In this document: positions 35,600 to 59,929 of the stretch, piece by piece
Position numbering within the stretch: the first letter of the stretch is position 1
Layout of the letters: every line of letters starts with the position of its first letter
The notes under the pieces: model-generated
Database searches by the model: none
Told to the model about the DNA's origin: nothing
Seen by the model: only the letters and a program-made list of their open reading frames with translations
Translations under genes and position numbers: made by a program
Source: Vicinamibacterales bacterium
Lineage (GTDB): Bacteria; Acidobacteriota; Vicinamibacteria; Vicinamibacterales; UBA8438
Length of the DNA: 64,000 bases
Reading direction: 5' to 3'
Assembly (NCBI GenBank): GCA_965216615.1
Contig: CBDCGH010000014.1
Span: 24,369-88,368, forward strand

Positions 35600-37747
35600 A
35601 TGCGCCGAAGACTCGGACTCGCAGTCGTTAGTGCCAGCGCCATCGTGTGGCTCGTGGGAGCGCACGGACTGTTCGCGGCGCGACCCAATACCGGTGTGAT
35701 CACCGGGACAGTGACCAGCGCGAGTGGGGCAGAAGCCGGCGTATGGGTGATTGCCGAAACCGACGAGCTCGAGACCGTGTATCGCAAGATCGTTGTGACC
35801 GACGACGAGGGTCGGTTCTTGCTGCCGGATATGCCAGACGTGCGGTTCAACGTATGGGTACGCGGATACGGCTTAGTCGACTCGATCCCCGTTCCCGCGA
35901 GGCCCGAACAGGATATCGACCTCACCGCCACCGTGGCCCCGACGCCGCAAGCGGCCGCCGCCGTGTACCCGGCGAACTACTGGCTGTCGCTGATTGACCT
36001 CCCGGAGGCGCACGAGTTCCCCGGTACAGGAGAAGGCGGCAACGGGATCAACCCCGAGCTCAAGTCGCAAGGTGAGTGGATCAACAACCTGAAAGGGTGC
36101 CAACGGTGTCACCAGGTAGGCAGTCTGCGGACCCGCGACGTTCCGGACATTCAAAATTTCGACTCGACACTGGCCGCGTGGAATGATCGGGTTCAGCGTG
36201 GACAGAGAGGGGCGCTGATGAACAGTTTCATGACGCGCTTTGGCCGCCAGCGCGGCCTCGAGATGGTCTCCGACTGGACCGACCGGATTGCGGCAGGTGC
36301 CGTTCCCGAGGCGCCACCACGGCCGACAGGGATCGAGCGCAACGTCGTGTTGACGATGTGGAATTGGGGTGACAGCGTGGCCTTCGTCCACGACGAAATC
36401 GCGACCGATAAGCGGGACCCGACCATCAATGCGAACGGTCCGATCTACGGCGTCGACATCGGCAACGATTTCCTCCTGGTCACCGATCCTGGCGAGCATC
36501 ACTCGACGATGCTCAAGATCCCGCTGCGAGCGCCGCGGGACAGCGTCCAGTCGATGTTCACGACGGAGGGATTCAAGCCATGGCGCGACTTTGGTGAGCG
36601 CGCCGTGTGGAACGATCCCGCGAATCCGCACAACCCGATGCTGGACAGCGAGGGGCGGGTGTGGCTGACGACGCGCGTACGGGCGCCGGAGAACCCGGAC
36701 TGGTGTCGGGAGCAGTCCGACAACCCATTCGCGCAGTACTTCCCGATCGAGCGGGCCGGCCGCCACGCCGGCTACTTCGACCCGAGAGCGCAGAAATTTG
36801 TTCTGATCGACACCTGTTTCGGCACCCATCACCTGCAGTTTGCCGAGGATGAGCACGACACGCTGTACTTCAGCGGGGGCGGCTCGGCGATCGGGTGGAT
36901 CAACACGAGGATGTACGACGAGACCGGCGATGAGCGCGCATCGCAGGGCTGGTGCCCGACGGTTCTCGATACCAACGGCGACGGCACCATTACCCAACCG
37001 TGGAACGAGCCACCGCCCAGAGGCGCGACGGCACCAACGCCAGACCCGTCGCTCGATACCCGCGTGGTCGTCGGCGCGTACGGCGTCATTGTCAGTCCGG
37101 TTGATGACGCGGTGTGGGTCGCATCCGACCGCTATCCGGGAGAGCTCCTGCGCCTGGATCCCGGCGACCATCCTCCGGAAACATGTATCAGCGAGCTCTA
37201 CGTCGTGCCGGCAGAGCAGGGCTATCGTACGCGTGGTCTAGACGTCGACAGAAGCGGCGTGCTGTGGACGGCGCTCGCGGGCAGCAGCCATTTCGCGAGC
37301 TTTGATCGCACGAAGTGCGCCACGCTCGGAGGTCCGGCAAACCGGGATGGCCGTCAGTGTGACGAGGGTTGGACGTTTTATCCGATGCCCGGTCCAGCGT
37401 ATGCCGGCACCAACATCGGTGCCGACTTTCACTATTACAACTGGGTGGACCAGTTCAATACGCTCGGACTAGGGGAGAACATCCCGATCGCGAACGGCTC
37501 CAACTCCGATTCGCTATTGGCCTTGATACCGGAGACCGGCGAATGGGTCGTGCTGCGCGTGCCCTACCCGCAGGGCTTTCACAGCCGGGGACTCGATGGC
37601 CGGATCGATGATCCCGAGGCGGGGTGGAAGGGGCGCGGTATCTACGCGACATATGGCGCCGACGCCGCGTGGCACGTGGAAGGCGGTCCGGGTGAGCCAG
37701 GCAACCTCGTGAAGTTTCAGATCCGCCCGGATCCGCTGGCTGAGTGA
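35600..37747 (+). CDS. exported CarboxypepD_reg-like domain + single CxxCH + beta-propeller-like protein, copy A
   Basis: Signal peptide, GVITGTVTSASGAEAGVWVIAE...DDEGRFLLPDMP, and CQRCH at 36098-36112. The C-terminal region has ..RGLDVDRSGVLWTAL..-type blades. It is a paralog of 49136-51358. Confidence 0.65.
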   Translation: MRRRLGLAVVSASAIVWLVGAHGLFAARPNTGVITGTVTSASGAEAGVWVIAETDELETVYRKIVVTDDEGRFLLPDMPDVRFNVWVRGYGLVDSIPVPARPEQDIDLTATVAPTPQAAAAVYPANYWLSLIDLPEAHEFPGTGEGGNGINPELKSQGEWINNLKGCQRCHQVGSLRTRDVPDIQNFDSTLAAWNDRVQRGQRGALMNSFMTRFGRQRGLEMVSDWTDRIAAGAVPEAPPRPTGIERNVVLTMWNWGDSVAFVHDEIATDKRDPTINANGPIYGVDIGNDFLLVTDPGEHHSTMLKIPLRAPRDSVQSMFTTEGFKPWRDFGERAVWNDPANPHNPMLDSEGRVWLTTRVRAPENPDWCREQSDNPFAQYFPIERAGRHAGYFDPRAQKFVLIDTCFGTHHLQFAEDEHDTLYFSGGGSAIGWINTRMYDETGDERASQGWCPTVLDTNGDGTITQPWNEPPPRGATAPTPDPSLDTRVVVGAYGVIVSPVDDAVWVASDRYPGELLRLDPGDHPPETCISELYVVPAEQGYRTRGLDVDRSGVLWTALAGSSHFASFDRTKCATLGGPANRDGRQCDEGWTFYPMPGPAYAGTNIGADFHYYNWVDQFNTLGLGENIPIANGSNSDSLLALIPETGEWVVLRVPYPQGFHSRGLDGRIDDPEAGWKGRGIYATYGADAAWHVEGGPGEPGNLVKFQIRPDPLAE

Positions 37748-43336: not shown

Positions 43337-45043
43337 ATGAAGAGTCGAGTAACGGTCTCAGCAGTGTGTGCGTGTGTCGTCGCGGTTTCGCTACTGTCGG
43401 CCCAGAACCGGGTCGACCCCTATCGACCGGTGACCGATGCGATGCTCCAGAACCCTGAGCCGTCGGAGTGGCTCAACTGGCGGCGCACGCTGGATGGGTG
43501 GGGCTACAGCCCGCTGGACCAGATCACGCGGGACAACGTGGGCGAGTTGCGCCTTGCGTGGAGCTGGGCCCTGGCCGAAGGCGCCCAGCAAACGACCCCA
43601 ATCGTGCACGACGGCGTCATGTTCATCGCGAATCCCGGTGCGATTGTGCAGGCACTGAACGCGGCGACCGGTGACCTCATTTGGGAGTACCGTCGGGCCA
43701 ACCTTGCGGAGCACCGAAATCTGGGCAGCGTCATCTCGGGCCGGGTGCATCGCAGTATCGCCATCTATGGCAACACGATCATTCTGAATACCCCCGATGG
43801 GTGGATCGTGGGAATCGACGCGCGCACGGGTGAAGAAGCCTGGGAAGCCGACGTTGGCGCATCTGGCGGATATCAGTTCTCGAGCGGCTCGATCGTCGCA
43901 GACGGAACGGTGGTGGCCGGCATGGCAGGCTGCAGCATCTATCGCGATGACACGTGCTACATCGTCGGGCTCGATGCGGAGACTGGTCGGGAGAAGTGGC
44001 GGACCTCAACGGTCGCGCGACCGGGCGAGCCTGGCGGCGACACCTGGGGCGATCTACCCGTGATGTTCCGTGCCGGGAGCGACGCCTGGATTCCGGGAAG
44101 CTACGACCCGTGGAGTCGGACCATCTTCATCGGCACCTCGCAAGCCAAGCCGTGGCATCGGCAGGCACGTGGCACCGACGGTGATGCGCTCTACACCAAT
44201 TCGACGCTCGCCCTCGATCCCGACACGGGAGAGCTCAAGTGGTACTACCAGCATCTCCCGGCCGAGACACACGATATGGACGAGACGTTCGAGCGGATCG
44301 TGATCGACGTCGACGGCCGGCCGTCGGTGTTTAGTATGGGGAAGATCGGCGTCCTTTGGCAGCTCGACTTGGCAACCGGCGCGTTTCAGGCCGCCCACGA
44401 CCTCGGGTACCAGACGTTGCTCGATATCGATCCGGCCTCCGGGGCGATTGCCTATCGCGAGGGGATGCTCAAAGACCTTGGTGAAGAGATCTTCTGGTGC
44501 CCGACCACGTCGGGCTTCAAGAGCTGGCGGGCGATGGCGTACCACCCGGACACGGAAGCGCTATACATTCCGATCATTCTGAATTGTGAGACCGCAACGT
44601 TCGGTCCGGTGGAGAAAGTGGTGGGCGGCGGCGGAACGGGACCGGTGCGTCGAACGAACCATTTCCATCCGAAGAGTCCCGACCACCTTGGAGAGTTCGC
44701 CGCCATGAACATCCGGACCGGCAAGGTGTTATGGAGCCATCGCTACCGGACCCCGATCAACAGCGCTGCGCTGACGACGGGGGGAGGGCTCGTGTTCGCA
44801 GGCGACTGGGATCGCCACATGCGTGCCTACGACGTGAGGGACGGCGAGGTGCTCTGGGAGACACGCCTCCCGCAATCAATCCAAGGATTCCCCATCACTT
44901 ACGCCGTAGATGGAACGCAGTACGTGGTCGTGCCGACGGGGACTGGTAGCGCGAGTTGGGGCACGATGCCAGCCGTGCTCACTCCGGAGAAGCATCGTCC
45001 TACGGGTGGGAACGGGATCTTCGTGTTCAAGGTGCCGTCGTAA
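43337..45043 (+). CDS. PQQ-dependent dehydrogenase (methanol/ethanol-family-like 8-bladed propeller), exported
   Basis: Signal peptide, then the N-terminal signature DAMLQNPEPSEWLNWRRTLDGWGYSPLDQITRDNVGELRLAWSW...TTPIVHDGVMF...ALNAATGDLIWEY. Confidence 0.8.
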   Translation: MKSRVTVSAVCACVVAVSLLSAQNRVDPYRPVTDAMLQNPEPSEWLNWRRTLDGWGYSPLDQITRDNVGELRLAWSWALAEGAQQTTPIVHDGVMFIANPGAIVQALNAATGDLIWEYRRANLAEHRNLGSVISGRVHRSIAIYGNTIILNTPDGWIVGIDARTGEEAWEADVGASGGYQFSSGSIVADGTVVAGMAGCSIYRDDTCYIVGLDAETGREKWRTSTVARPGEPGGDTWGDLPVMFRAGSDAWIPGSYDPWSRTIFIGTSQAKPWHRQARGTDGDALYTNSTLALDPDTGELKWYYQHLPAETHDMDETFERIVIDVDGRPSVFSMGKIGVLWQLDLATGAFQAAHDLGYQTLLDIDPASGAIAYREGMLKDLGEEIFWCPTTSGFKSWRAMAYHPDTEALYIPIILNCETATFGPVEKVVGGGGTGPVRRTNHFHPKSPDHLGEFAAMNIRTGKVLWSHRYRTPINSAALTTGGGLVFAGDWDRHMRAYDVRDGEVLWETRLPQSIQGFPITYAVDGTQYVVVPTGTGSASWGTMPAVLTPEKHRPTGGNGIFVFKVPS

Positions 45044-45935
45044 GCTCGTCAAAAAGCGCCTGCACGGCGGCCGGGCGGAACGGCCAGTTCAGGTCGTCGA
45101 TCTCCAGTTGGTCTGCGATTGCCTCGCGCGTGACCCCTGACTCGATTAGGTTGTGCATCCGGTCGAGGAGCGTCTGAAAGCGATGGCGGAAGGCGCGGAC
45201 ATCGCTCTTGGTCATGATCGCGCCGTGGCCGGGAATGACCGTGTCGAAGTCGAGCTCGAGCACGCGATCAAGCGTATCGACCCACTCCGAGCCGTCCCCG
45301 CCGTTTCCGTAGTCGATGAAGGGCGACAGCGTCGTGCCATCGAGACGCTCACCGAAGATGAAAAGGTCGCCGGTGTGGACCGTCTTGAGGTCTGAGAAGT
45401 AAATCACGGAGTCACCGTTCGTGTGACCACGGCCCACATGGTGAGCCTGCACTTCTACACCCCCAAGAAACACCGACGTGTGATTAGCAAAAACGACTTC
45501 CGCCGGGCCTGCAAGCTCGTTGCGGACCGTGTTCTTTCTGGCGTTCTGATGAGCGATGACGGTGGCCTCTGCCATGAAGTCGGCGTTGCTTCCCGCGTGG
45601 TCGGAATGGTGATGGGTGTTGAGGACGTATCGGATCGGCTGCGAGGTCACCTTCGCCACCTGGCGGTTCACCTCGGCATGGCTGTACTCGTACTTGTCGT
45701 CGACGATGAGCACGCCGTCACTCGTGACCCGGACGGCGACGTTACCGCCAGACATCGCGCCATCAAATCCGGGGATGACGTACAGACCCTCCTTGGATGC
45801 GACTGGCTGAATCTGCAGCCGCGCCATTTGCTCGGGGGTCAGGTCAGGCGGCTGCGCCTGACCGCCAGCCACCCGGATCGCGGCTACTCCGAGCACAATC
45901 GCCGACAGGACGGCGATAATCTTGATCTCGCGCAT
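45027..45935 (-). CDS. exported MBL-fold metallo-hydrolase
   Basis: Signal peptide and the HHHSDH (HxHxDH) motif. Its 3' end overlaps the convergent PQQ gene by 17 nt. Confidence 0.8.
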   Translation of the reverse strand: MREIKIIAVLSAIVLGVAAIRVAGGQAQPPDLTPEQMARLQIQPVASKEGLYVIPGFDGAMSGGNVAVRVTSDGVLIVDDKYEYSHAEVNRQVAKVTSQPIRYVLNTHHHSDHAGSNADFMAEATVIAHQNARKNTVRNELAGPAEVVFANHTSVFLGGVEVQAHHVGRGHTNGDSVIYFSDLKTVHTGDLFIFGERLDGTTLSPFIDYGNGGDGSEWVDTLDRVLELDFDTVIPGHGAIMTKSDVRAFRHRFQTLLDRMHNLIESGVTREAIADQLEIDDLNWPFRPAAVQALFDELTTAP

Positions 45936-45943
45936 GGGTGTGC

Positions 45944-47017
45944 CTAGTTCGGGATGACCGCGACACCCCAGGGACGCTCCCCGACGGACACGGTAGCCTC
46001 GACCGCCATGGTCTCGGTATTGACGACCGACACGTCGTTGGATGGACCGTTCGCAGCGTAGAGATAGCGGCCGTCCGGGCTGAGCGCGATACCCCAGGGG
46101 CGCTCACCGACCGTCGCCGTTGCGCGGACGCCACCGCGGAGCGCATCCATGGCGACGATGGTACGACCGCGTCCGGTCGAGATGTACACAGTGGCGCCGT
46201 CGGGGGAGACGGCCACGCCCATTGGACGCGACGGGTCGCCAGGCACCTCTACGGTGGCGATCACCGTGTGGGACGAGGTATCGACGATCGACACGGTTCC
46301 GGCGTTCTCGGACGTCACGAACGCGCGACTGCTGTCCGGCGAGAACGCCGATGCTCGTGGCCGCGCACCGACCTCGAACTGTTCGACGACCTCGTTCGAC
46401 GCGGTGTCGATGACCGAGACCTGGTTCTCGTCCTCCGACGTGACGTAGACGAAGCGGCCGTCTGGGCTGGTCGTCATGCCTTCGGGCTCGCCTCCCACCG
46501 ACAGGCTGGCCAGAATCTCCGTTGACTCGATGTCGATGACGCTGGCTGTCGCGGCATCCTCGTTCGCGACGTAGACCAAGGTGCCATCACCGCTAAGCGC
46601 CACTTGCTCCGGATCGGTTCCGCCCTTGAGCACCCTGAGCACCTCGCGACTCGCCACATCGACGATGCCGACACCGTCGGCGTCCCGATCGGGTGGCGGG
46701 AGCGTTGACTCGTCAGTTCCGGGAGGCGCGGGCGATGATCCGCTGAGCGCCACGAACAACAGACTACCGTCAGGGCTCGCCTTGATGCCGCGCGGCCGTT
46801 TGCCGAGAGGCACGGTCGCGACGACCTCGTGTGTGCCGCCGGCAATCACCGTGAGGTTACCGGAGGTTTCGTTGGTGACATACACGTAGTACGGCGGCGG
46901 TGGAGCCTCGGGCTCGACGGCAGCCGGCTCAGGCGGCGGGGGAGGAGGCTCGCCGCCGCACGCGGCAGCCAAGGCCACGATGACGGGAAGAATCAAAAGA
47001 GCGACACGTTTAGGCAT
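45944..47017 (-). CDS. YVTN-family beta-propeller repeat lipoprotein
   Basis: MPKRVALLILPVIVALAAACGG contains a lipobox. Repeats include YVTNETSGNLTVI, YVANEDAATASVIDI, YVTSEDENQVSVIDT and FVTSENAGTVSIVDT. Confidence 0.75.
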   Translation of the reverse strand: MPKRVALLILPVIVALAAACGGEPPPPPPEPAAVEPEAPPPPYYVYVTNETSGNLTVIAGGTHEVVATVPLGKRPRGIKASPDGSLLFVALSGSSPAPPGTDESTLPPPDRDADGVGIVDVASREVLRVLKGGTDPEQVALSGDGTLVYVANEDAATASVIDIESTEILASLSVGGEPEGMTTSPDGRFVYVTSEDENQVSVIDTASNEVVEQFEVGARPRASAFSPDSSRAFVTSENAGTVSIVDTSSHTVIATVEVPGDPSRPMGVAVSPDGATVYISTGRGRTIVAMDALRGGVRATATVGERPWGIALSPDGRYLYAANGPSNDVSVVNTETMAVEATVSVGERPWGVAVIPN

Positions 47018-47019
47018 AT

Positions 47020-49146
47020 TTAAGGTTCTACGAAGACTTGGCCCATGGCCCATGGATGATCTTCACAATGGTAGGTGTAGGTGCCAGGCTCGTCAAAGGG
47101 CACATAGCCAGACTGCGCCATCTTCAGCTGTCCGGCGGCCCAACTGCCGTCGACGGCGGTAATGGTATGGGTCAACCGGCCGCTGTTTGTGAACGTAACC
47201 GTCGTTCCGGCCGCGACTCGAATCTGTGACGGGTTGAACGCGTGCTCATCGACCGCATATCGCAGCCCAACGCCGCGTTCGGCACTCTGCACAAGTGTGG
47301 TGGTTTGCACCTGGTTGGTCTCACGACCCGTGGCGCGACGGCCGGTTGGCGGTGGCATGGCGTCGCGCTCGGGCTCGGTGCCGCCCAGTTTGAAAGCCCA
47401 GAGTTCCGGTCCCATGGCTACGGCGACATACTGCTCTCCGTTGACGGCGTAGGTCGCTGCGGGTCCGCGTGAACTCCGGACCCCGGTCTGAAACTGCCAC
47501 ACGCGCTCGCCCGAGGCTGCGTCGTAGGCCTCGAAGTGGCCATCCCCAGAACCGCGAAACATCAGCCCACCCGCGGTCGTGAGCGCACCGCTCGTACCGA
47601 GCACGCCAATTGGCACTTCGTGCCGCCAAACGATGCGATTGGTTCGGGAGTCAATGGCGGTGACGACACCAATCGGCGGCGGGATCGTCGAGTAGGTGCG
47701 TGCACCGCCGCGGAACCAAGGGTCGTCGGTAATGCGGCGGGCGCGTCCGATATGGGCGCGTCCCTGGGCGTAGAGATAGCCCGTCTGGGGACTGTAGGAC
47801 ATCGCGGCGACGCGGACCTGCGGAATCGGCGCCCCAGGAGCCACGACGTCGTGTCGGTCGACGTACGGAGGCGTAAAGCTGCTACAGCTAAGCACCCAAG
47901 GCTCGGGGATCTTGTCACGCCACCACTCGCAATCAGGGACGACCGAGTCACCGACGGGGAAGGGTTGGGTCGGAGCCGTGTTGTTGAACGGGTCCTGCGG
48001 CACCGGGCGCTCCTCGATCGGATGGATCGGCTCGCCGGTGGCCCGATCGAGCATGAAGATAAAACCGTCGGCGCGCAGGGCGGCCAGCGCTTTTCGAGTG
48101 CCGTTCGGGGTTTGGGCGTCGTACAGCAGCGGCGAAATGGCGATGTCGGCATCCCATAGATCGTGTCGAACCACCTGATAATGCCAGCGAAGCCCGCCCG
48201 TTCGCATGTCGAAGGCGAGGATCGACGCGGTGTACAGATTGTCGCCCTTTCGGGCCTCGCCCCCGAACATCGGCACGGCATTGCCTGTGACGAAGTAGAC
48301 GAGACCCAGTTCAGGATCGACGTTTCCGATGTGCCACACACCGGCGCCGCCTTGGGCCCAGACATCCCTGAACTCGCCTTCCTGGGGCCAGGTCTCGTGC
48401 CCGGGCTCTCCGGGTTCGGGAATCGTCCAGAAGTCCCAGAGCACGTCTCCAGTCTCGGCGTCGAGCGCGACCACCTTCCCGCGAAACGCCCAGTCGCCGT
48501 TGGCGAGACCCGTGAAGACGACACCGTTCGCGTAAATGGGCGCCCCTGAGACGGCCTGGCCGGTCTTGGGTGGCGTGAATCCGATCTGGGTCGTCCAGAG
48601 AAAGGCTCCGGTCTCTTGACTCACGCCCGCAACCCGGCCGTCCATCAGGCCGACGAAGACCTTGCCGCCCCCGAGTGCGACCCCCGGCGGTGACGGAATG
48701 GCTCGTCCGGCGTTCAGGATGTCACCGACACCGGCGGAATCGAGGTCAGCCGGGGCGTCCTGGTCAGGCCTGATCGTCCAGATGGCTTCGCCCGTGGCCG
48801 CATCAATCGCGTACAGGCGAGTGCCCGCACCGATGTACAGGATGCCGTCCTTGACGACGGGCGTGGCCCTCGTGCTGGCCCCTCCCTCGAATGGGAGACG
48901 CCAGACCGCACCCAAGTCGGCCACCGTCTCAGTGTTGATCTGGTCGAGCGTGGAGTACCGAGAATTCGCCCAGTCGCCGCCGATGAAGGGCCAGTCCTCG
49001 GCAGCGAACGTGGCGCCGTCGAGCGCCTCGTTCTGCACCGCCACCGCGACGGGCAGGCCGACGACAAGCGATAGGACCAGCGCGCCCCGCCACACTCTTC
49101 CGCCACGGAAGGCGCGCCGGCGCAGCTGACCAGGTCTAGCGAGCAA
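47020..49146 (-). CDS. PQQ-dependent dehydrogenase (glucose/quinate-family-like) fused to a C-terminal cupredoxin domain
   Basis: Propeller motifs include GDNLYTASILAFDMRTGGLRWHYQVVRHDLWDAD. The C-terminus has ..THTITAVDG..YTYHCEDHPWAM (a His...Cys-x2-His-x3-Met type-1 Cu pattern). The start is uncertain (TTG 49146 or GTG 49095). The track ORF start at 49482 lies inside the upstream gene. Confidence 0.75.
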   Translation of the reverse strand: MLARPGQLRRRAFRGGRVWRGALVLSLVVGLPVAVAVQNEALDGATFAAEDWPFIGGDWANSRYSTLDQINTETVADLGAVWRLPFEGGASTRATPVVKDGILYIGAGTRLYAIDAATGEAIWTIRPDQDAPADLDSAGVGDILNAGRAIPSPPGVALGGGKVFVGLMDGRVAGVSQETGAFLWTTQIGFTPPKTGQAVSGAPIYANGVVFTGLANGDWAFRGKVVALDAETGDVLWDFWTIPEPGEPGHETWPQEGEFRDVWAQGGAGVWHIGNVDPELGLVYFVTGNAVPMFGGEARKGDNLYTASILAFDMRTGGLRWHYQVVRHDLWDADIAISPLLYDAQTPNGTRKALAALRADGFIFMLDRATGEPIHPIEERPVPQDPFNNTAPTQPFPVGDSVVPDCEWWRDKIPEPWVLSCSSFTPPYVDRHDVVAPGAPIPQVRVAAMSYSPQTGYLYAQGRAHIGRARRITDDPWFRGGARTYSTIPPPIGVVTAIDSRTNRIVWRHEVPIGVLGTSGALTTAGGLMFRGSGDGHFEAYDAASGERVWQFQTGVRSSRGPAATYAVNGEQYVAVAMGPELWAFKLGGTEPERDAMPPPTGRRATGRETNQVQTTTLVQSAERGVGLRYAVDEHAFNPSQIRVAAGTTVTFTNSGRLTHTITAVDGSWAAGQLKMAQSGYVPFDEPGTYTYHCEDHPWAMGQVFVEP

Positions 49147-51358
49147 GCGGATCCGGGCGCAGCTGGAAGTGCACGATCTTGCTCTTCGTGCCTTTCCCGC
49201 CTTCCGTGTGCCAGATGTAGTTCGCACCGTAGTTGGCCCACAACCCGCGACCCTTCCATCCCGTATTTGGGTCGTCGATTCGACCGTCCAGACCGCGGGA
49301 GTAGAATGCCATCGGATACGGAACCCGGAGGACGACCCACTCCTTTGTCTTCGGGTCGAGGGCGAGCAGCGAGTCTGACGTCGAGCCGTTGGCGATCGGG
49401 ATGTTCGCACCCATCCCAAGGGTGTTGTATTGGTCGACCCAGCTGTAGTAGTGGAAATCGGCACCGACCGGCTCGTCGACATTCCGCATGCGCGGACCGG
49501 GAACGGGGTGCAGGGTCCAGCCCTCCGGGCAGTGCTGCCCGGTCGCAGTGGGACCGCTCTTCACCGAGCACTTGCTCCGGTCGAAGCTCGCCAGATGGCT
49601 GCTGCCAGACAGGGCGGCCCAGATGATGCCGTTACGATCGACATCGATGCCGCGCGGCGCGAAGCCCGTCTTCATCGGGTCGACGTTCGGGTTGTCGATC
49701 GAGGGTGGCTCGTAGACCTCCGCCATACACGTCTCGGGCGGGTTGTCACCGCGCGCTAACCGGACGAGACGGCCCGGGAAGGGCCCGGTTCTCGTGATCC
49801 AGATGGACTCGTCGATCGGGCTTGCGATGATGCCGTATCCGAAGCCGGCAATCCGGGTGTCGAGGCTCATGTCCGGTTCGCCGTCTTGTCCCGGCTCGTT
49901 CCACGGCTTAGTGATCGTGCCGTCGCCGTTGGTGTCGATGACGGTCGGGCACCAGCCCTGTGAGAACCGCTCGTCACCGGTCTCGTCGTAGACACGCGTG
50001 TTGAGCCAGCCGACCGCGTTGCTGTCACCGCTGAACCACAGTGTGTTGTCTGCGTCCTCACCGAACTGGAGATGGTGAGTGCCAAAGCAGGTGTCGATGA
50101 GCACGAAGCGCTGGCGTTCGGGATCCCAGTACGAGGCGTGCCGGCCGGTACGAGTTAACTCGAAATACTCCGCGTAGTCGTTGCCCGAGCCCTCCTTACA
50201 CCAGTCTGGGTTGGCGAACTGCCGCATCGTCGAGGTCATCCAGACACGGCCATCCTGGTCCATCATCGGGTTGTGGGGATCCGATCGCTCGTCGGGGTTG
50301 ATGCCCCACAGGAGCTCGTCACCCCAGTAGTAGGAGGGGTTGACTTGCGTCTGCGGGAATCGCGTCGGCATCGTTTCCGGGTCGGGTCGCACGGGAATGG
50401 TTACCTCAGTCGCCGCGTTGGCGACCGGGTCGACCCATGTGATCGTCCCGTGACCCGCGGATACGCCATAGACGGGCCCGTTCGCGTTGAGCGTCGGGTT
50501 CCGCTTGTCGGTCACGATCTCGTCGTGGATGAAGGAGGAGTCCTGCCCCCAATCCCACAGCGTCACGACGACGTTGCGTTCGCGTCCCGCGGGCCGCGGT
50601 GGCTGCTCAGGAATCTCGCCGGCCGCGATCCGGTCGGTCCAGTCAGCGAACATCTCGAGGCCGCGCTGTCGCCCGAATCGGCCCATGGCATTACTCATTT
50701 GATTGCCGCGCTGCCCAGTTGCGACCCGGTAGTCCCATGCGGCGACCGTCGAGTCGAACTCGTCGCGATGCTGCACGACCCGGGTCGCCTCGTTGCCCAG
50801 CTGGTGGCACAGCTGGCAATTCTGCTTCATGAGATCGATCCAGGCGTGCTGATTCCGAACGTTGGTCGAGATGCCGTTGCCTTCGTCGCCCGTACCCGGA
50901 AACTCGCTCTTGGCCGGAGGCTCGATGAGCGAGTACCAGTAGTTCCCCGGGTAGTACTGGGCCGCCGCCTGTGGGGTCGGCGCGATCACGGCTTCGAGCG
51001 CAACGCCTTCACGATCGGGTGACAACTTCACCTTCTCGGAGTCAACCAGACCATACCCCCTCACCCAGACGTCATAGGTCGCCCCGGGGAGCTGCGGAAG
51101 TACGAACTGCCCATCGTCATCGGTGACGACGATCTTGGCGAACTTCGTCTCGAGCTCCTCAGTTTCGGCGATAACCCACACGCCGGCCTCGGTCCCAGCG
51201 CTGCTGGTGACCACACCGCTGATGTACCCCTCGGGAAGCTCCGACTGCTGGGCGGAACTGGTCACCATCAAGGCAGCGATGACCGCGCTGAGGGCGACAC
51301 CCACGAGGGCCGGGCGCAGCAGCCTGCGAGCGTTTCGTGTGCGACTTACCGTACTCAT
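49136..51358 (-). CDS. exported CarboxypepD_reg-like domain + single CxxCH + beta-propeller-like protein, copy B
   Basis: The M at 51358 gives the signal MSTVSRTRNARRLLRPALVGVALSAVIAALMVTSSAQQ. It has GYISGVVTSSAGTEAGVWVIAE and CQLCH, and aligns with copy A along its whole length. Confidence 0.65.
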   Translation of the reverse strand: MSTVSRTRNARRLLRPALVGVALSAVIAALMVTSSAQQSELPEGYISGVVTSSAGTEAGVWVIAETEELETKFAKIVVTDDDGQFVLPQLPGATYDVWVRGYGLVDSEKVKLSPDREGVALEAVIAPTPQAAAQYYPGNYWYSLIEPPAKSEFPGTGDEGNGISTNVRNQHAWIDLMKQNCQLCHQLGNEATRVVQHRDEFDSTVAAWDYRVATGQRGNQMSNAMGRFGRQRGLEMFADWTDRIAAGEIPEQPPRPAGRERNVVVTLWDWGQDSSFIHDEIVTDKRNPTLNANGPVYGVSAGHGTITWVDPVANAATEVTIPVRPDPETMPTRFPQTQVNPSYYWGDELLWGINPDERSDPHNPMMDQDGRVWMTSTMRQFANPDWCKEGSGNDYAEYFELTRTGRHASYWDPERQRFVLIDTCFGTHHLQFGEDADNTLWFSGDSNAVGWLNTRVYDETGDERFSQGWCPTVIDTNGDGTITKPWNEPGQDGEPDMSLDTRIAGFGYGIIASPIDESIWITRTGPFPGRLVRLARGDNPPETCMAEVYEPPSIDNPNVDPMKTGFAPRGIDVDRNGIIWAALSGSSHLASFDRSKCSVKSGPTATGQHCPEGWTLHPVPGPRMRNVDEPVGADFHYYSWVDQYNTLGMGANIPIANGSTSDSLLALDPKTKEWVVLRVPYPMAFYSRGLDGRIDDPNTGWKGRGLWANYGANYIWHTEGGKGTKSKIVHFQLRPDPLAR

Positions 51359-58561: not shown

Positions 58562-58579
58562 AATATACGGGGAGTGCTT

Positions 58580-58948
58580 ATGTCTCGAACCTTTCGTGTC
58601 ACGTGCTGGGCGGGTGCTCTAGCGATGCTGTCGGTCGTCTCGGTGCTCGCGCACCTGGCGCCGACGAAGAGCCTGCCTGAGGCCGAGGCGGTGCTGACGG
58701 ATACTCCGGATCAAGTGCAGGTCTGGTTCACGCAGGAGCCGGATCCGGCCGTGAGTCGGCTCACCCTGGAGGGGCCCGCCGGTGGCATCGACATCGGCGA
58801 GACCACTGTTGCGAAGGACAAGTCACTGCGGGCTGACGTTTCTGTCCAGCTTGTTCCTGGCGGCTACACGCTGAAGTGGCGAACCGCTGGCGACGACGGG
58901 CACGTCAGGCGGGGCGACATCGCCTTCCGAGTACGTCCAGCTGACTAG
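58580..58948 (+). CDS. copC: CopC-domain copper-binding periplasmic protein
   Basis: The signal peptide ends ..SVLA, giving a mature N-terminus HLAPTKSLPEAEAVL. ...YTLKWRTAGDDGHVRRGDIAFRV is CopC-like. Confidence 0.75.
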   Translation: MSRTFRVTCWAGALAMLSVVSVLAHLAPTKSLPEAEAVLTDTPDQVQVWFTQEPDPAVSRLTLEGPAGGIDIGETTVAKDKSLRADVSVQLVPGGYTLKWRTAGDDGHVRRGDIAFRVRPAD

Positions 58949-59005: not shown

Positions 59006-59929
59006 ATGTCGGGTGAGACCCTAGCCCTCATCTATCTCTCGACCGCCAAGTTCATCACCTACCTCGGGCTTTTTGGTTTGACAGGTGCGACGGTTGCACG
59101 CCTGTTCGTCGTCGGCCAGGCTCTACGCCGTCGTGATCTCGAACAGCCCGAGGAGGCAGCACTCTGCCGACGGGCTCGGCAGGTCGCGCTGGTCTCAGCC
59201 AGCCTCCTCGCGACGGCGGTGCTGGCGCGCGTCTACGCGCAAACCTATTCGGCGTTCGGGGTCGACGAAGGGGTGACCTTCGAGCTGCTGCGCGTGGTTG
59301 CTTTCGAGAGCCGCTGGGGAAGTCGTTGGCTGCTCCAGCTGTGGGCCACGGTTCTGGCCGTTGCAGCAGCGGTGCTGCTGGTGCGGAGTCCTAAGCCGGG
59401 ATGGTGGCTGATCGCCATCGGGGTGGGTTCCGTCGCGGCAACGCTGCCGACCACGGGGCATGCGATGGCACATCAGGTCGGTATGCTGCTGCAGGTTGGC
59501 CACATCCTTGCGGGCGGGCTATGGCTTGGCACATTGGCGGTGCTCGTCTTCGCCGTTGTCTCGTCAGGGCAGTCGGCACGGGGTGCCAACTGTGGGATGA
59601 CGGCCACGTTGATCAATGCCTTCTCGCCTCTGGCAGTCGGCGCCGTCATAACGGTCGTCCTGACGGGTGTTGCTACGGCGGTGGTCTACCTCGAGCAGTG
59701 GAGCGACCTCTGGGAGACAGGCTACGGACAAGTCCTTGTCGGCAAGATCATGCTGATGCTCGCGACAGGGACGGTCGGGGCCTACAATTGGAGATTCCTC
59801 AGACCGCGGCTCGGCACGCCGGAGGCCGCCGGCCTATTAGTGCGGTCTAGCATCGTGGAGCTCACCCTCGCATGTATCGTCCTCATCGTGACAGCGGTTC
59901 TGGTTCATTTACCAATGCCAAGGGAGTAG
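59006..59929 (+). CDS. copD: CopD-family copper-resistance membrane protein
   Basis: About 8 TM spans, with His-containing motifs (TTGHAMAH, GHILAGGLWLG). It lies directly downstream of copC. Confidence 0.7.
   Translation: MSGETLALIYLSTAKFITYLGLFGLTGATVARLFVVGQALRRRDLEQPEEAALCRRARQVALVSASLLATAVLARVYAQTYSAFGVDEGVTFELLRVVAFESRWGSRWLLQLWATVLAVAAAVLLVRSPKPGWWLIAIGVGSVAATLPTTGHAMAHQVGMLLQVGHILAGGLWLGTLAVLVFAVVSSGQSARGANCGMTATLINAFSPLAVGAVITVVLTGVATAVVYLEQWSDLWETGYGQVLVGKIMLMLATGTVGAYNWRFLRPRLGTPEAAGLLVRSSIVELTLACIVLIVTAVLVHLPMPRE

Follow-up and report, generated by a model that had tools for sequence, protein, structure and literature searches.

The gene and its domains

We analyzed a 64,000-nucleotide stretch of DNA (hereafter, the window) from a Vicinamibacterales bacterium of the phylum Acidobacteriota (GenBank assembly GCA_965216615.1, contig CBDCGH010000014.1, positions 24,369 to 88,368). 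Its minus strand carries a gene for a β-propeller of the pyrroloquinoline quinone (PQQ) type that is fused to a C-terminal cupredoxin domain. We think it likely that this protein is a Sec-exported, quinoprotein-type dehydrogenase of the methanol/ethanol superfamily with a tethered, amicyanin-like cupredoxin as its electron acceptor. The gene lies in a minus-strand operon whose layout is as described in the original prediction, which was made from the sequence alone: a CxxCH protein, the fusion, a YVTN lipoprotein, and a metallo-β-lactamase-fold (MBL) hydrolase, with gaps of 2 and 8 nucleotides before the last two genes. The coordinates of these features within the window are given in Table 1.

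The original prediction also held that propeller and cupredoxin form a single polypeptide, and three lines of evidence agree. The frame from 47020 to 49146 is free of stops and encodes 708 amino acids, ending in ...LTHTITAVDG...YTYHCEDHPWAMGQVFVEP; both domains are found by Pfam; and the full-length AlphaFold2 (AF2) model is confident (predicted local distance difference test, or pLDDT, 89.5; predicted TM-score 0.88). The PQQ family PF01011 is matched over its entire profile (positions 1–595 of 595).

Residue numbers here are those of the 708-residue form (P0001), which begins at the gene caller's start, TTG 49146. The true start is probably GTG 49095, which would give 691 residues, because the orthologs begin there and because this start abolishes the overlap with the upstream gene, whose stop is at 49136. 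Specifically, the orthologs (690–699 amino acids) start about 20 residues ahead of the AVAVQ cleavage region and have ordinary Sec signals. GTG 49095 is preceded by GGCGGAAGA, and the N-terminus that begins with it, MWRGALVLSLVVGLPVAVAVQ, is a Sec-type signal, indicating that the protein is periplasmic. AF2 places a helix across residues 18–42, in the signal region. We also considered export by the Tat system, for which the 708-residue form has an RRRAF stretch, and rejected it: the ortholog starts lie downstream of that stretch and are followed by plain Sec-type signals.

The tail has a cupredoxin fold, as the original prediction had proposed. It matches PF00127 (Copper-bind) at residues 636–706 with 27.8 bits (cut-off 21.2) and PF13473 (Cupredoxin_1) with 27.0 bits (cut-off 27). 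Among NCBIfam models, the best small-domain match is amicyanin (TIGR02657), at 39.2 bits versus an equivalog cut-off of 110.2 bits, so by these scores the tail is amicyanin-like rather than an amicyanin ortholog. A separate model of residues 606–708, built with 34 homologs, has a pLDDT of 94.6. When we compared this model to known structures with Foldseek, the best fold match was the "purple cupredoxin" of Nitrosopumilus (5fc9). A Nitrosopumilus copper oxidoreductase (9cck) has a C-terminal cupredoxin that superimposes with a TM-score of 0.77 and a root-mean-square deviation of 1.3 Å, and amicyanins superimpose with deviations of 1.5–2.7 Å. Plastocyanins match as well, and the Foldseek probability is 1.00 for amicyanin, plastocyanin, 5fc9, and 9cck. 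A profile search of the PDB gave the same relatives (9cck, E = 1.2e-18; amicyanin, 6.6e-12; 5fc9, 2e-11); the best-scoring amicyanin entry was 2idq, which is the M98A mutant.

Quinohaemoproteins carry a cytochrome c domain where this protein has its cupredoxin, which was another point of the original prediction. In a Pfam scan of the fusion protein, we found no CxxCH after the propeller and no match to PF00034 or PF13442.

Table 1. The fusion gene, its domains and predicted copper and metal sites, and the neighboring genes, in window coordinates.
Feature	Position	Strand	Basis or remarks
PQQ-type propeller/cupredoxin fusion gene	47020..49095	-	open frame, ortholog N-termini, DNA near the start, Pfam and NCBIfam
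Sec-type signal peptide, MWRGALVLSLVVGLPVAVA before VQ	49039..49095	-	sequence reading; orthologs have equivalent short signals; cleavage site predicted
Eight-bladed PQQ-type propeller, residues 52-574	47425..48993	-	PF01011, E = 1.7e-86
Codons of Asp332-Ala333-Asp334 (W-D-A-D motif)	48145..48153	-	aligns with W-D-F-D of PedH, versus W-D-Y-T of the Ca-dependent 1kb0
Linker, residues 575-630 (about 55 residues), partly β-structured	47257..47424	-	AF2 secondary structure, pLDDT 72-96
Amicyanin-like cupredoxin, residues 631-708	47023..47256	-	PF00127, PF13473, domain model, Foldseek, PDB profile search
His660 codon, first copper ligand (predicted)	47167..47169	-	46/46 homologs; aligns with amicyanin His53
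Ligand loop Cys694-Glu-Asp-His697-Pro-Trp-Ala700-Met701	47044..47067	-	direct reading of the DNA
Exported protein of 740 aa; N-terminal domain like CarboxypepD_reg, and a single haem-c motif, C-x-x-C-H-Q-[LIV]-G-N-x-x-T-R	49136..51358	-	open frame and signal peptide
YVTN β-propeller lipoprotein	45944..47017	-	ATG 47017, 2 nt after the fusion's stop; lipobox MPKRVALLILPVIVALAAAC
Exported metallo-β-lactamase-fold hydrolase	45027..45935	-	PF00753, E = 1.7e-17; 8-nt gap after the YVTN gene
Second PQQ-type propeller, 568 aa, untailed, convergent with the operon	43337..45043	+	PF01011, E = 8e-55; TIGR03075, 335 bits

Distribution and origin of the fusion

Contigs from four sequencing runs, each from a different study, cross the domain junction without any insertion or deletion. 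One of these contigs (X2) has no differences from the window over 46900–48234, and another (X4) spans 46900–49190.

The fusion is not rare. The genome that the window comes from (4.8 Mb in 24 contigs, 95% complete) encodes eight full-length paralogs that carry this tail, although an internal TAG interrupts one of them. In the databases, using residues 560–708 as the query, we found at least 190 clusters with E ≤ 1e-3 among the candidates that shared words with the query. Members are mostly 660–720 amino acids long, and many are on megabase contigs. A pattern scan of species-representative genomes found 78 loci, and nearly all of these encode the tail together with a full-length propeller. Carriers include closed chromosomes and cultured isolates. 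We conclude that the fusion is neither a chance event nor an artefact. Annotation pipelines have seen both domains as well: automatic names in IMG include "glucose dehydrogenase/plastocyanin".

Most of the carriers are metagenome-assembled genomes (MAGs) of Vicinamibacterales, and the closest of these is 93% identical in the tail. The fusion is also found in other Acidobacteriota, in MAGs of Rhodospirillales and other α-Proteobacteria, and in the cultured bacteria Steroidobacter flavus, S. gossypii, and Peristeroidobacter agariperforans. Among 301 Acidobacteriota genomes that were sampled evenly, the only full-length-type matches came from the window's own family (three genomes, with 8, 4, and 2 copies), so the distribution of the fusion is patchy, and it is multi-copy where it is present. 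A profile search of 1.84 billion representative sequences with the tail domain was uninformative for counting fusions, because the repeat scores of tandem poly-cupredoxins add up. These tandem proteins, with 3 to 12 copies of a cupredoxin like the tail (P0122–P0271), dominate that search; for instance, P0122 has 10 repeats in 1,154 amino acids and P0130 has 12 repeats in 3,670 amino acids.

To place the tailed proteins relative to other propellers, we built a tree with FastTree from the propeller region only. It included 53 cupredoxin-bearing proteins (45 with two domains and 8 with three) and, as the sole outgroups, 61 untailed paralogs from the window's own genome. All 53 cupredoxin-bearing propellers group together in a single clade (support 100, stem length 0.58) that excludes the untailed paralogs. 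Since a tree of the propellers alone unites the tailed proteins, the tail was gained once within this sampled set and has co-evolved with the propeller since then.

Some members of the clade have a third domain, a cytochrome c, which changes state at least three times within the clade. The order PQQ propeller, cupredoxin, cytochrome c is found in at least 10 database clusters. In the protein from S. flavus, the PQQ match covers residues 54-403+, the cupredoxin is at 637–709, and the cytochrome c is at 738–812. This three-domain form is present in cultured γ-Proteobacteria: S. flavus (locus L065:4165-6693) and P. agariperforans (locus L068). The S. flavus gene adjoins genes for an aldo/keto reductase, a GFO/IDH/MocA oxidoreductase, and a second PQQ-cytochrome c enzyme.

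We also made a census, with a hidden Markov model, of the propellers in the window's own genome. It contains 80 propeller open reading frames with E ≤ 1e-10, and about 70 of them score at least 150 bits. Most have the W-D-x-D motif, only five have Cys-Cys in the expected region, and eight have the cupredoxin tail. None of them has a CxxCH (cytochrome c) tail, so the cupredoxin is the only redox domain appended to this genome's propellers.

Some of these genes are unusual in other ways. The paralog with the internal TAG (C23:226584-228647) has an open frame of 463 amino acids and could be a pseudogene or the result of a sequencing error. There are also identical or near-identical PQQ genes on contigs C17 and C18, and another such pair at C19:218121-220112 and C23:334742-336733. 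Together with the estimated contamination of 6%, these suggest assembly redundancy or recent duplication, and the paralog counts may be slightly inflated.

The predicted copper site

To see if the tail retains a copper site, we examined the predicted ligands in 46 full-length homologs. His697 and Trp699 occur in all 46, and Cys694 occurs in 45. The amicyanin counterparts of Cys694 and His697 are Cys92 and His95. With two histidines (His660 and His697) that never vary and a cysteine that is nearly constant, the equatorial His-Cys-His ligands expected of a type-1 site are under selection. The ligand set is likewise kept across the 78 genome loci. We noticed one departure, in an 829-residue homolog with three domains (P0091): the ligand cysteine is replaced by aspartate (F-I-D-K-E-H-P-W), and both histidines and the cytochrome c domain are kept.

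The stretch from Cys694 to Glu707 (C-E-D-H-P-W-A-M-G-Q-V-F-V-E) has the same length and pattern as Cys92 to Glu105 of amicyanin (C-T-P-H-P-F-M-R-G-K-V-V-V-E). The register is the same, without gaps, in 9cck (C-T-L-H-P-W-M-K-G) and in 5fc9 (C-S-F-H-P-W-R-V-G). In this ungapped register, Ala700 is at the position of the axial ligand Met98, and Met701 is at the position of Arg99, a surface residue in the patch of amicyanin that docks with methylamine dehydrogenase (MADH).

Across the family, position 700 is alanine, serine, valine, or threonine. Position 701 is more variable: it is Y (18), M (14), I (5), V (4), T (2), K (2), or R (1) in the 46 homologs, and V (25), M (17), Y (17), I (9), K (7), L (1), F (1), or R (1) at the 78 loci. 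In the genome's other seven paralogs, it is isoleucine or valine. Lysine or arginine at this position would suit a surface site and would poorly suit a buried ligand.

The original prediction read these residues as a type-1 pattern ending in Cys-x2-His-x3-Met. Its histidines and cysteine are the conserved ones, but the assignment of the methionine is probably in the wrong register. (The H-x3-M spacing does occur in azurin.) Given the register and the variability of position 701, it is unlikely that Met701 is an axial ligand. Because the canonical methionine position is occupied by Ala700, the site is most probably a His2Cys site whose axial position is empty or filled by water.

The propeller and its predicted active site

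The propeller has an eight-bladed fold that is homologous to the methanol and alcohol dehydrogenases. Foldseek matches it to 1kb0, PedH (6zcw), 1kv9, and XoxF with E values of 1e-39 to 1e-43; the top match is 1kb0 (E = 4e-43), followed by PedH. By sequence as well, its closest relatives are the quinohaemoprotein alcohol dehydrogenase 1kb0 (E = 3.5e-63) and the lanthanide-dependent PedH, at 27–29% identity.

We mapped the active site with HMMER alignments to 1kb0 and PedH (6zcv) and counted conservation in the 46 full-length homologs. The conserved candidates for active-site residues are Arg93, Asp218, Trp271, Asn289, Asp329, Asp332, Asp334, and Arg358. Two of these, Trp271 and Asn289, correspond to the residue of 1kb0 that stacks on PQQ (Trp245) and to a metal ligand (Asn263), and both are invariant. 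The catalytic base and metal ligand of 1kb0, Asp308, corresponds to Asp332, which is aspartate in 25 homologs and glutamate in the other 21. Asp334 is invariant (46/46). It corresponds to Thr310 of 1kb0 and to the second aspartate in the W-D-F-D motif of PedH, which is the lanthanide-type position. Asp332 is the putative catalytic base and a putative metal ligand, and Asp334 is the extra aspartate of lanthanide type.

The operon and its neighbors

Methionine is found at position 701 in 17 of the 78 loci. Of these, 16 encode proteins that are 68–89% identical over their full length to the window's protein, and one is truncated at the edge of a contig. These Met-type loci are the window protein's own ortholog group, and their operon is: 740-residue monohaem protein, fusion, YVTN lipoprotein, MBL hydrolase.

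The gene for the 740-residue haem protein is beside the fusion in 12 of the 17 Met-type loci and in only 1 of the 61 other loci. That one (L087) is in a Rhodospirillaceae MAG (JAIEMI010000042.1, 37-11290), where the gene order is fusion, 740-residue family, fusion, fusion, 740-residue family, and a class I cytochrome c of 202 amino acids. The haem motif is kept down to 42% identity: it is present in the orthologs, in seven paralogs from the window's genome, and in the Rhodospirillaceae MAG. We found no match in the PDB or NCBIfam for the 740-residue protein. It is a candidate for the next electron acceptor or for another kind of partner of the fusion protein.

Other members of this family are encoded at 35600–37747 of the window, at C24:1283893-1286067, and at C23:497169-499391. 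The family is repeatedly found next to PQQ-type genes, including one paralog that directly follows three PQQ genes on contig C24, and its members have only "hypothetical" names.

Against TIGR03866, to which PedA2 belongs, the YVTN protein reaches 266 bits, short of the cut-off of 287, and it also matches the repeats of TIGR02276. It seems to be related to the propeller family that is associated with PQQ-dependent catabolism, and so to be PedA2-like. PedA2 is a YVTN propeller of unknown function that is encoded in the operon for a lanthanide ABC transporter in Pseudomonas putida (10.1101/670216). The MBL hydrolase weakly resembles the SoxH-related hydrolases of the "quinoprotein relay system" (TIGR04558, 68 bits versus a cut-off of 300).

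The untailed propeller that is convergent with the operon has a counterpart in the same arrangement at an ortholog locus (L018). In the window, this gene and the MBL gene overlap by 17 nucleotides at their 3' ends (45027–45043).

The original prediction also saw a copper theme in the window. The genes for CopC (58574–58948) and CopD (59006–59929) are indeed present. However, they are about 9.5 kb from the fusion gene and on the opposite strand, with unrelated genes in between, so we rejected them as evidence of linkage.

Proposed electron transfer from PQQ to copper

Quinoprotein dehydrogenases naturally pass electrons to cupredoxins such as amicyanin and azurin. We infer the following scheme, including which cofactors occupy the sites (PQQ, lanthanide, and copper), which way electrons flow, and which protein accepts them. 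The substrate, probably an alcohol, aldehyde, or sugar, would be oxidized at a site with PQQ and a lanthanide or calcium. The fused copper, bound to His660, Cys694, and His697, would then re-oxidize the resulting PQQH2 by taking its two electrons one at a time. From the copper, electrons would pass through an exposed patch formed by His697, Pro698, Trp699, and Met701 to a periplasmic c-type haem protein, which might be the 740-residue monohaem protein that is encoded upstream or a soluble cytochrome c. The haem protein would then feed the respiratory chain.

The strongest support for a path from PQQ to copper to haem is the domain order of the sister proteins, in which a cytochrome c is fused as the third domain after the cupredoxin. 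The potentials are also suitable: with PQQ/PQQH2 at about +90 mV and type-1 copper typically between +200 and +400 mV, transfer from PQQ to copper would be downhill. The fused copper domain is probably a built-in first electron acceptor, and the "built-in electron exit" of the original prediction gains backing from the three-domain relatives.

Several observations weigh against this reading. First, the propeller's score for the methanol/ethanol family of PQQ dehydrogenases (TIGR03075) is 327.7 bits, which is under the cut-off of 480.05 bits. Second, its active site differs from that of every characterized enzyme. In place of the vicinal disulfide Cys116-Cys117 of 1kb0, which PedH has as well, there is Val-Gly in a gapped, variable loop. 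The metal ligand Glu185 of 1kb0 is replaced by Asp218 (43/46 homologs). Two contacts to PQQ are also replaced: Glu70 by Arg93 (42/46) and Lys335 by Ala359 (29/46), which is beside Arg358 (45/46). Third, neither pqqC nor pqqE scores above its cut-off in the 95%-complete genome (the best hits have 42 bits versus 240 and 88 bits versus 381, respectively). Fourth, a copper site that lacks the canonical axial methionine may fall outside the classical blue copper type. Finally, the 740-residue family is not dedicated to the fusion, since its clusters number at least 8,000 and greatly exceed those of the fusion family.

Hence, the name "PQQ dehydrogenase" from the original prediction should be taken as putative, given the missing Cys-Cys, the aspartate in place of the metal glutamate, the score below the TIGR03075 cut-off, and the failure to find pqqC or pqqE. 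The propeller appears to belong to a divergent subfamily, and its cofactor content (PQQ, lanthanide occupancy) is likewise putative. The loss of Cys-Cys coincides with the gain of the tail, and we speculate that it may go with a different exit route for electrons.

If pqqC and pqqE are missing, then PQQ would have to be imported. PQQ uptake by non-producers is documented as widespread (PMC12124388). The genome would thus have a very large repertoire of quinoproteins that is apparently reliant on scavenged PQQ.

Alternative explanations

The same observations raise the possibility that the propeller is "empty" or binds some other cofactor instead of PQQ, and that the cupredoxin has another redox or binding role. 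Besides the absence of pqqC, pqqE, and Cys-Cys and the substituted PQQ contacts, this idea draws on a strong, though sub-threshold, match to the "acido-empty-quinoprotein group A" family (TIGR04528, 291.3 bits) and on the sheer number of such propellers in the genome (about 70). Still, we consider it unlikely. The cut-off for TIGR04528 is 650 bits, which is far from being reached. Across the family, there is little or no variation in the stacking tryptophan, the asparagine, and the two aspartates of the metal/PQQ site. The adjoining PedA2-like YVTN gene is typical of PQQ/lanthanide systems, and non-producers are documented to scavenge PQQ (PMC12124388).

Another idea is that the copper is catalytic and not a relay: its site would have three ligands and an open axial position, like that of the Nitrosopumilus protein Nmar_1307, and would use electrons from the propeller to react with a small molecule such as nitric oxide (NO) or nitrite. 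Nmar_1307 reportedly reacts with NO and has water at the axial position. Its structure, 5fc9, is the best structural match for the tail and shares the C-x2-H-P-W loop, and the axial position is alanine, serine, valine, or threonine throughout the family. On the other hand, the cytochrome c that follows the cupredoxin in the three-domain proteins is the layout of a relay, and no genes for nitrogen oxide metabolism are found in the operon. Also, the M98A mutant of amicyanin (2idq) is said to retain an electron-transfer type-1 site with an axial water. A catalytic role for the copper is therefore quite improbable.

Electrons could also flow the other way, with the cupredoxin as the point of entry and the propeller reducing a substrate. 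The direction is not legible from sequence, and we found nothing specific in favor of this. To our knowledge, all of the characterized eight-bladed PQQ enzymes are dehydrogenases that feed acceptors of higher potential, and type-1 copper has potentials above that of PQQ, so we consider reverse flow to be very improbable.

Last, the original prediction allowed that an assembly error or frameshift might have joined two genes, which is refuted by the contigs from four studies that cross the junction, the eight paralogs, and the clusters and loci from other genomes; the sole anomaly, a 1-nucleotide deletion at 48681, is inside the propeller region, not at the junction, and is found in one contig with 3x coverage (run X1) but not in the three other runs, so it is probably an assembly error in that contig.

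Returning to a quinoprotein-type dehydrogenase with a tethered copper acceptor, a more specific version of this reading can be put forward tentatively, as possible rather than probable. It would be a natural class of "quinocuproproteins" in which a lanthanide-type PQQ site without Cys-Cys is wired to a tethered, Met-less His2Cys copper. Residue 701 (Met, Val, Ile, Tyr, or Lys) would set the specificity for the partner, the partner in this lineage would be a member of the very large 740-residue monohaem family, and about 70 paralogs would run on scavenged PQQ and lanthanides.

Comparison with known systems

Quinoprotein dehydrogenases use separate cytochromes c or blue-copper proteins as acceptors, or they have fused cytochrome domains. 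The closest parallel in architecture is the type II quinohaemoprotein alcohol dehydrogenases: qhEDH of Comamonas testosteroni (1KB0) and ADH IIB (1KV9) and ADH IIG (1YIQ) of Pseudomonas putida HK5. Like the fusion protein, these are periplasmic single chains with a propeller, a linker, and a C-terminal one-electron acceptor, but their tail is a cytochrome c instead of a cupredoxin. The fusion protein is only 27–29% identical to these enzymes, lacks Cys-Cys, and has aspartate for the metal glutamate and a lanthanide-type aspartate for the threonine of 1KB0.

The closest parallel in electron transfer is the system of MADH, amicyanin, and cytochrome c551i from Paracoccus denitrificans (1AAC, 1MDA), in which electrons pass from a quinoprotein to an amicyanin-type cupredoxin to a c-type cytochrome, as proposed here. 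The likeness to amicyanin extends to the C-x2-H-P-[FW]-x-x-G-x-V-x-V-E stretch, which is of identical length, and the three-domain relatives reproduce the order of quinone, copper, and haem. Unlike in the MADH system, the partners here are parts of one chain, propeller-bound PQQ would take the place of tryptophan tryptophylquinone as the quinone, and the axial Met98 position is alanine. By analogy, the fusion may be viewed as a single-chain counterpart of this relay.

The lanthanide-dependent PQQ alcohol dehydrogenases (PedH, 6ZCW; XoxF, 6DAM/4MAE/6OC5) have the W-D-x-D motif in common with the fusion protein, which also has a PedA2-like YVTN gene next to it. They differ in having Cys-Cys and the metal glutamate (here aspartate), and they use separate cytochromes (XoxG, cytochrome c550) instead of a cupredoxin tail.

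Tethered acceptors are also known from copper enzymes. In the multicopper oxidase/NirK-like protein of Nitrosopumilus maritimus (9CCK) and in NirK of Thermus scotoductus (6HBE), a small domain is fused at the C-terminus as an internal partner for electron transfer, and in 9CCK this domain is a cupredoxin with the same C-x2-H-P-W loop. In both, the catalytic partner is a copper oxidoreductase and not a quinoprotein, and 9CCK retains the axial methionine (H-P-W-M). As for the copper site itself, Nmar_1307 (5FC9) and the M98A variant of amicyanin (2IDQ) are cupredoxins with His2Cys and a non-ligating axial residue, which is how we read the site here. Those proteins stand alone, and one of them is engineered, whereas the Met-less site of the fusion is natural, family-wide, and tethered to a dehydrogenase.

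We found no description of a PQQ-cupredoxin fusion in the searchable literature (which does not cover subscription journals), and the papers on lanthanide-dependent PQQ enzymes that we found do not mention copper domains. It has been hypothesized that PQQ dehydrogenases of thaumarchaea feed separate blue-copper proteins (PMC7300363). The fusion is thus a real and biochemically uncharacterized variant of the tethered-acceptor quinoproteins that is widespread in one order of soil bacteria. Conceptually, it is an expected extension of the known logic of electron transfer from quinoproteins.

Implications

If our reading is correct, then the fusion would be a one-chain model of electron transfer from quinone to copper, and it would provide a natural type-1-like site without an axial methionine in a defined functional setting. 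It would also be a new scaffold for enzymes in direct-electron-transfer biosensors and biofuel cells. The cultured carriers S. flavus, S. gossypii, and P. agariperforans make the fusion testable. More broadly, it bears on periplasmic substrate oxidation by the Vicinamibacterales, abundant soil Acidobacteriota that may use lanthanides and scavenged PQQ for this purpose.

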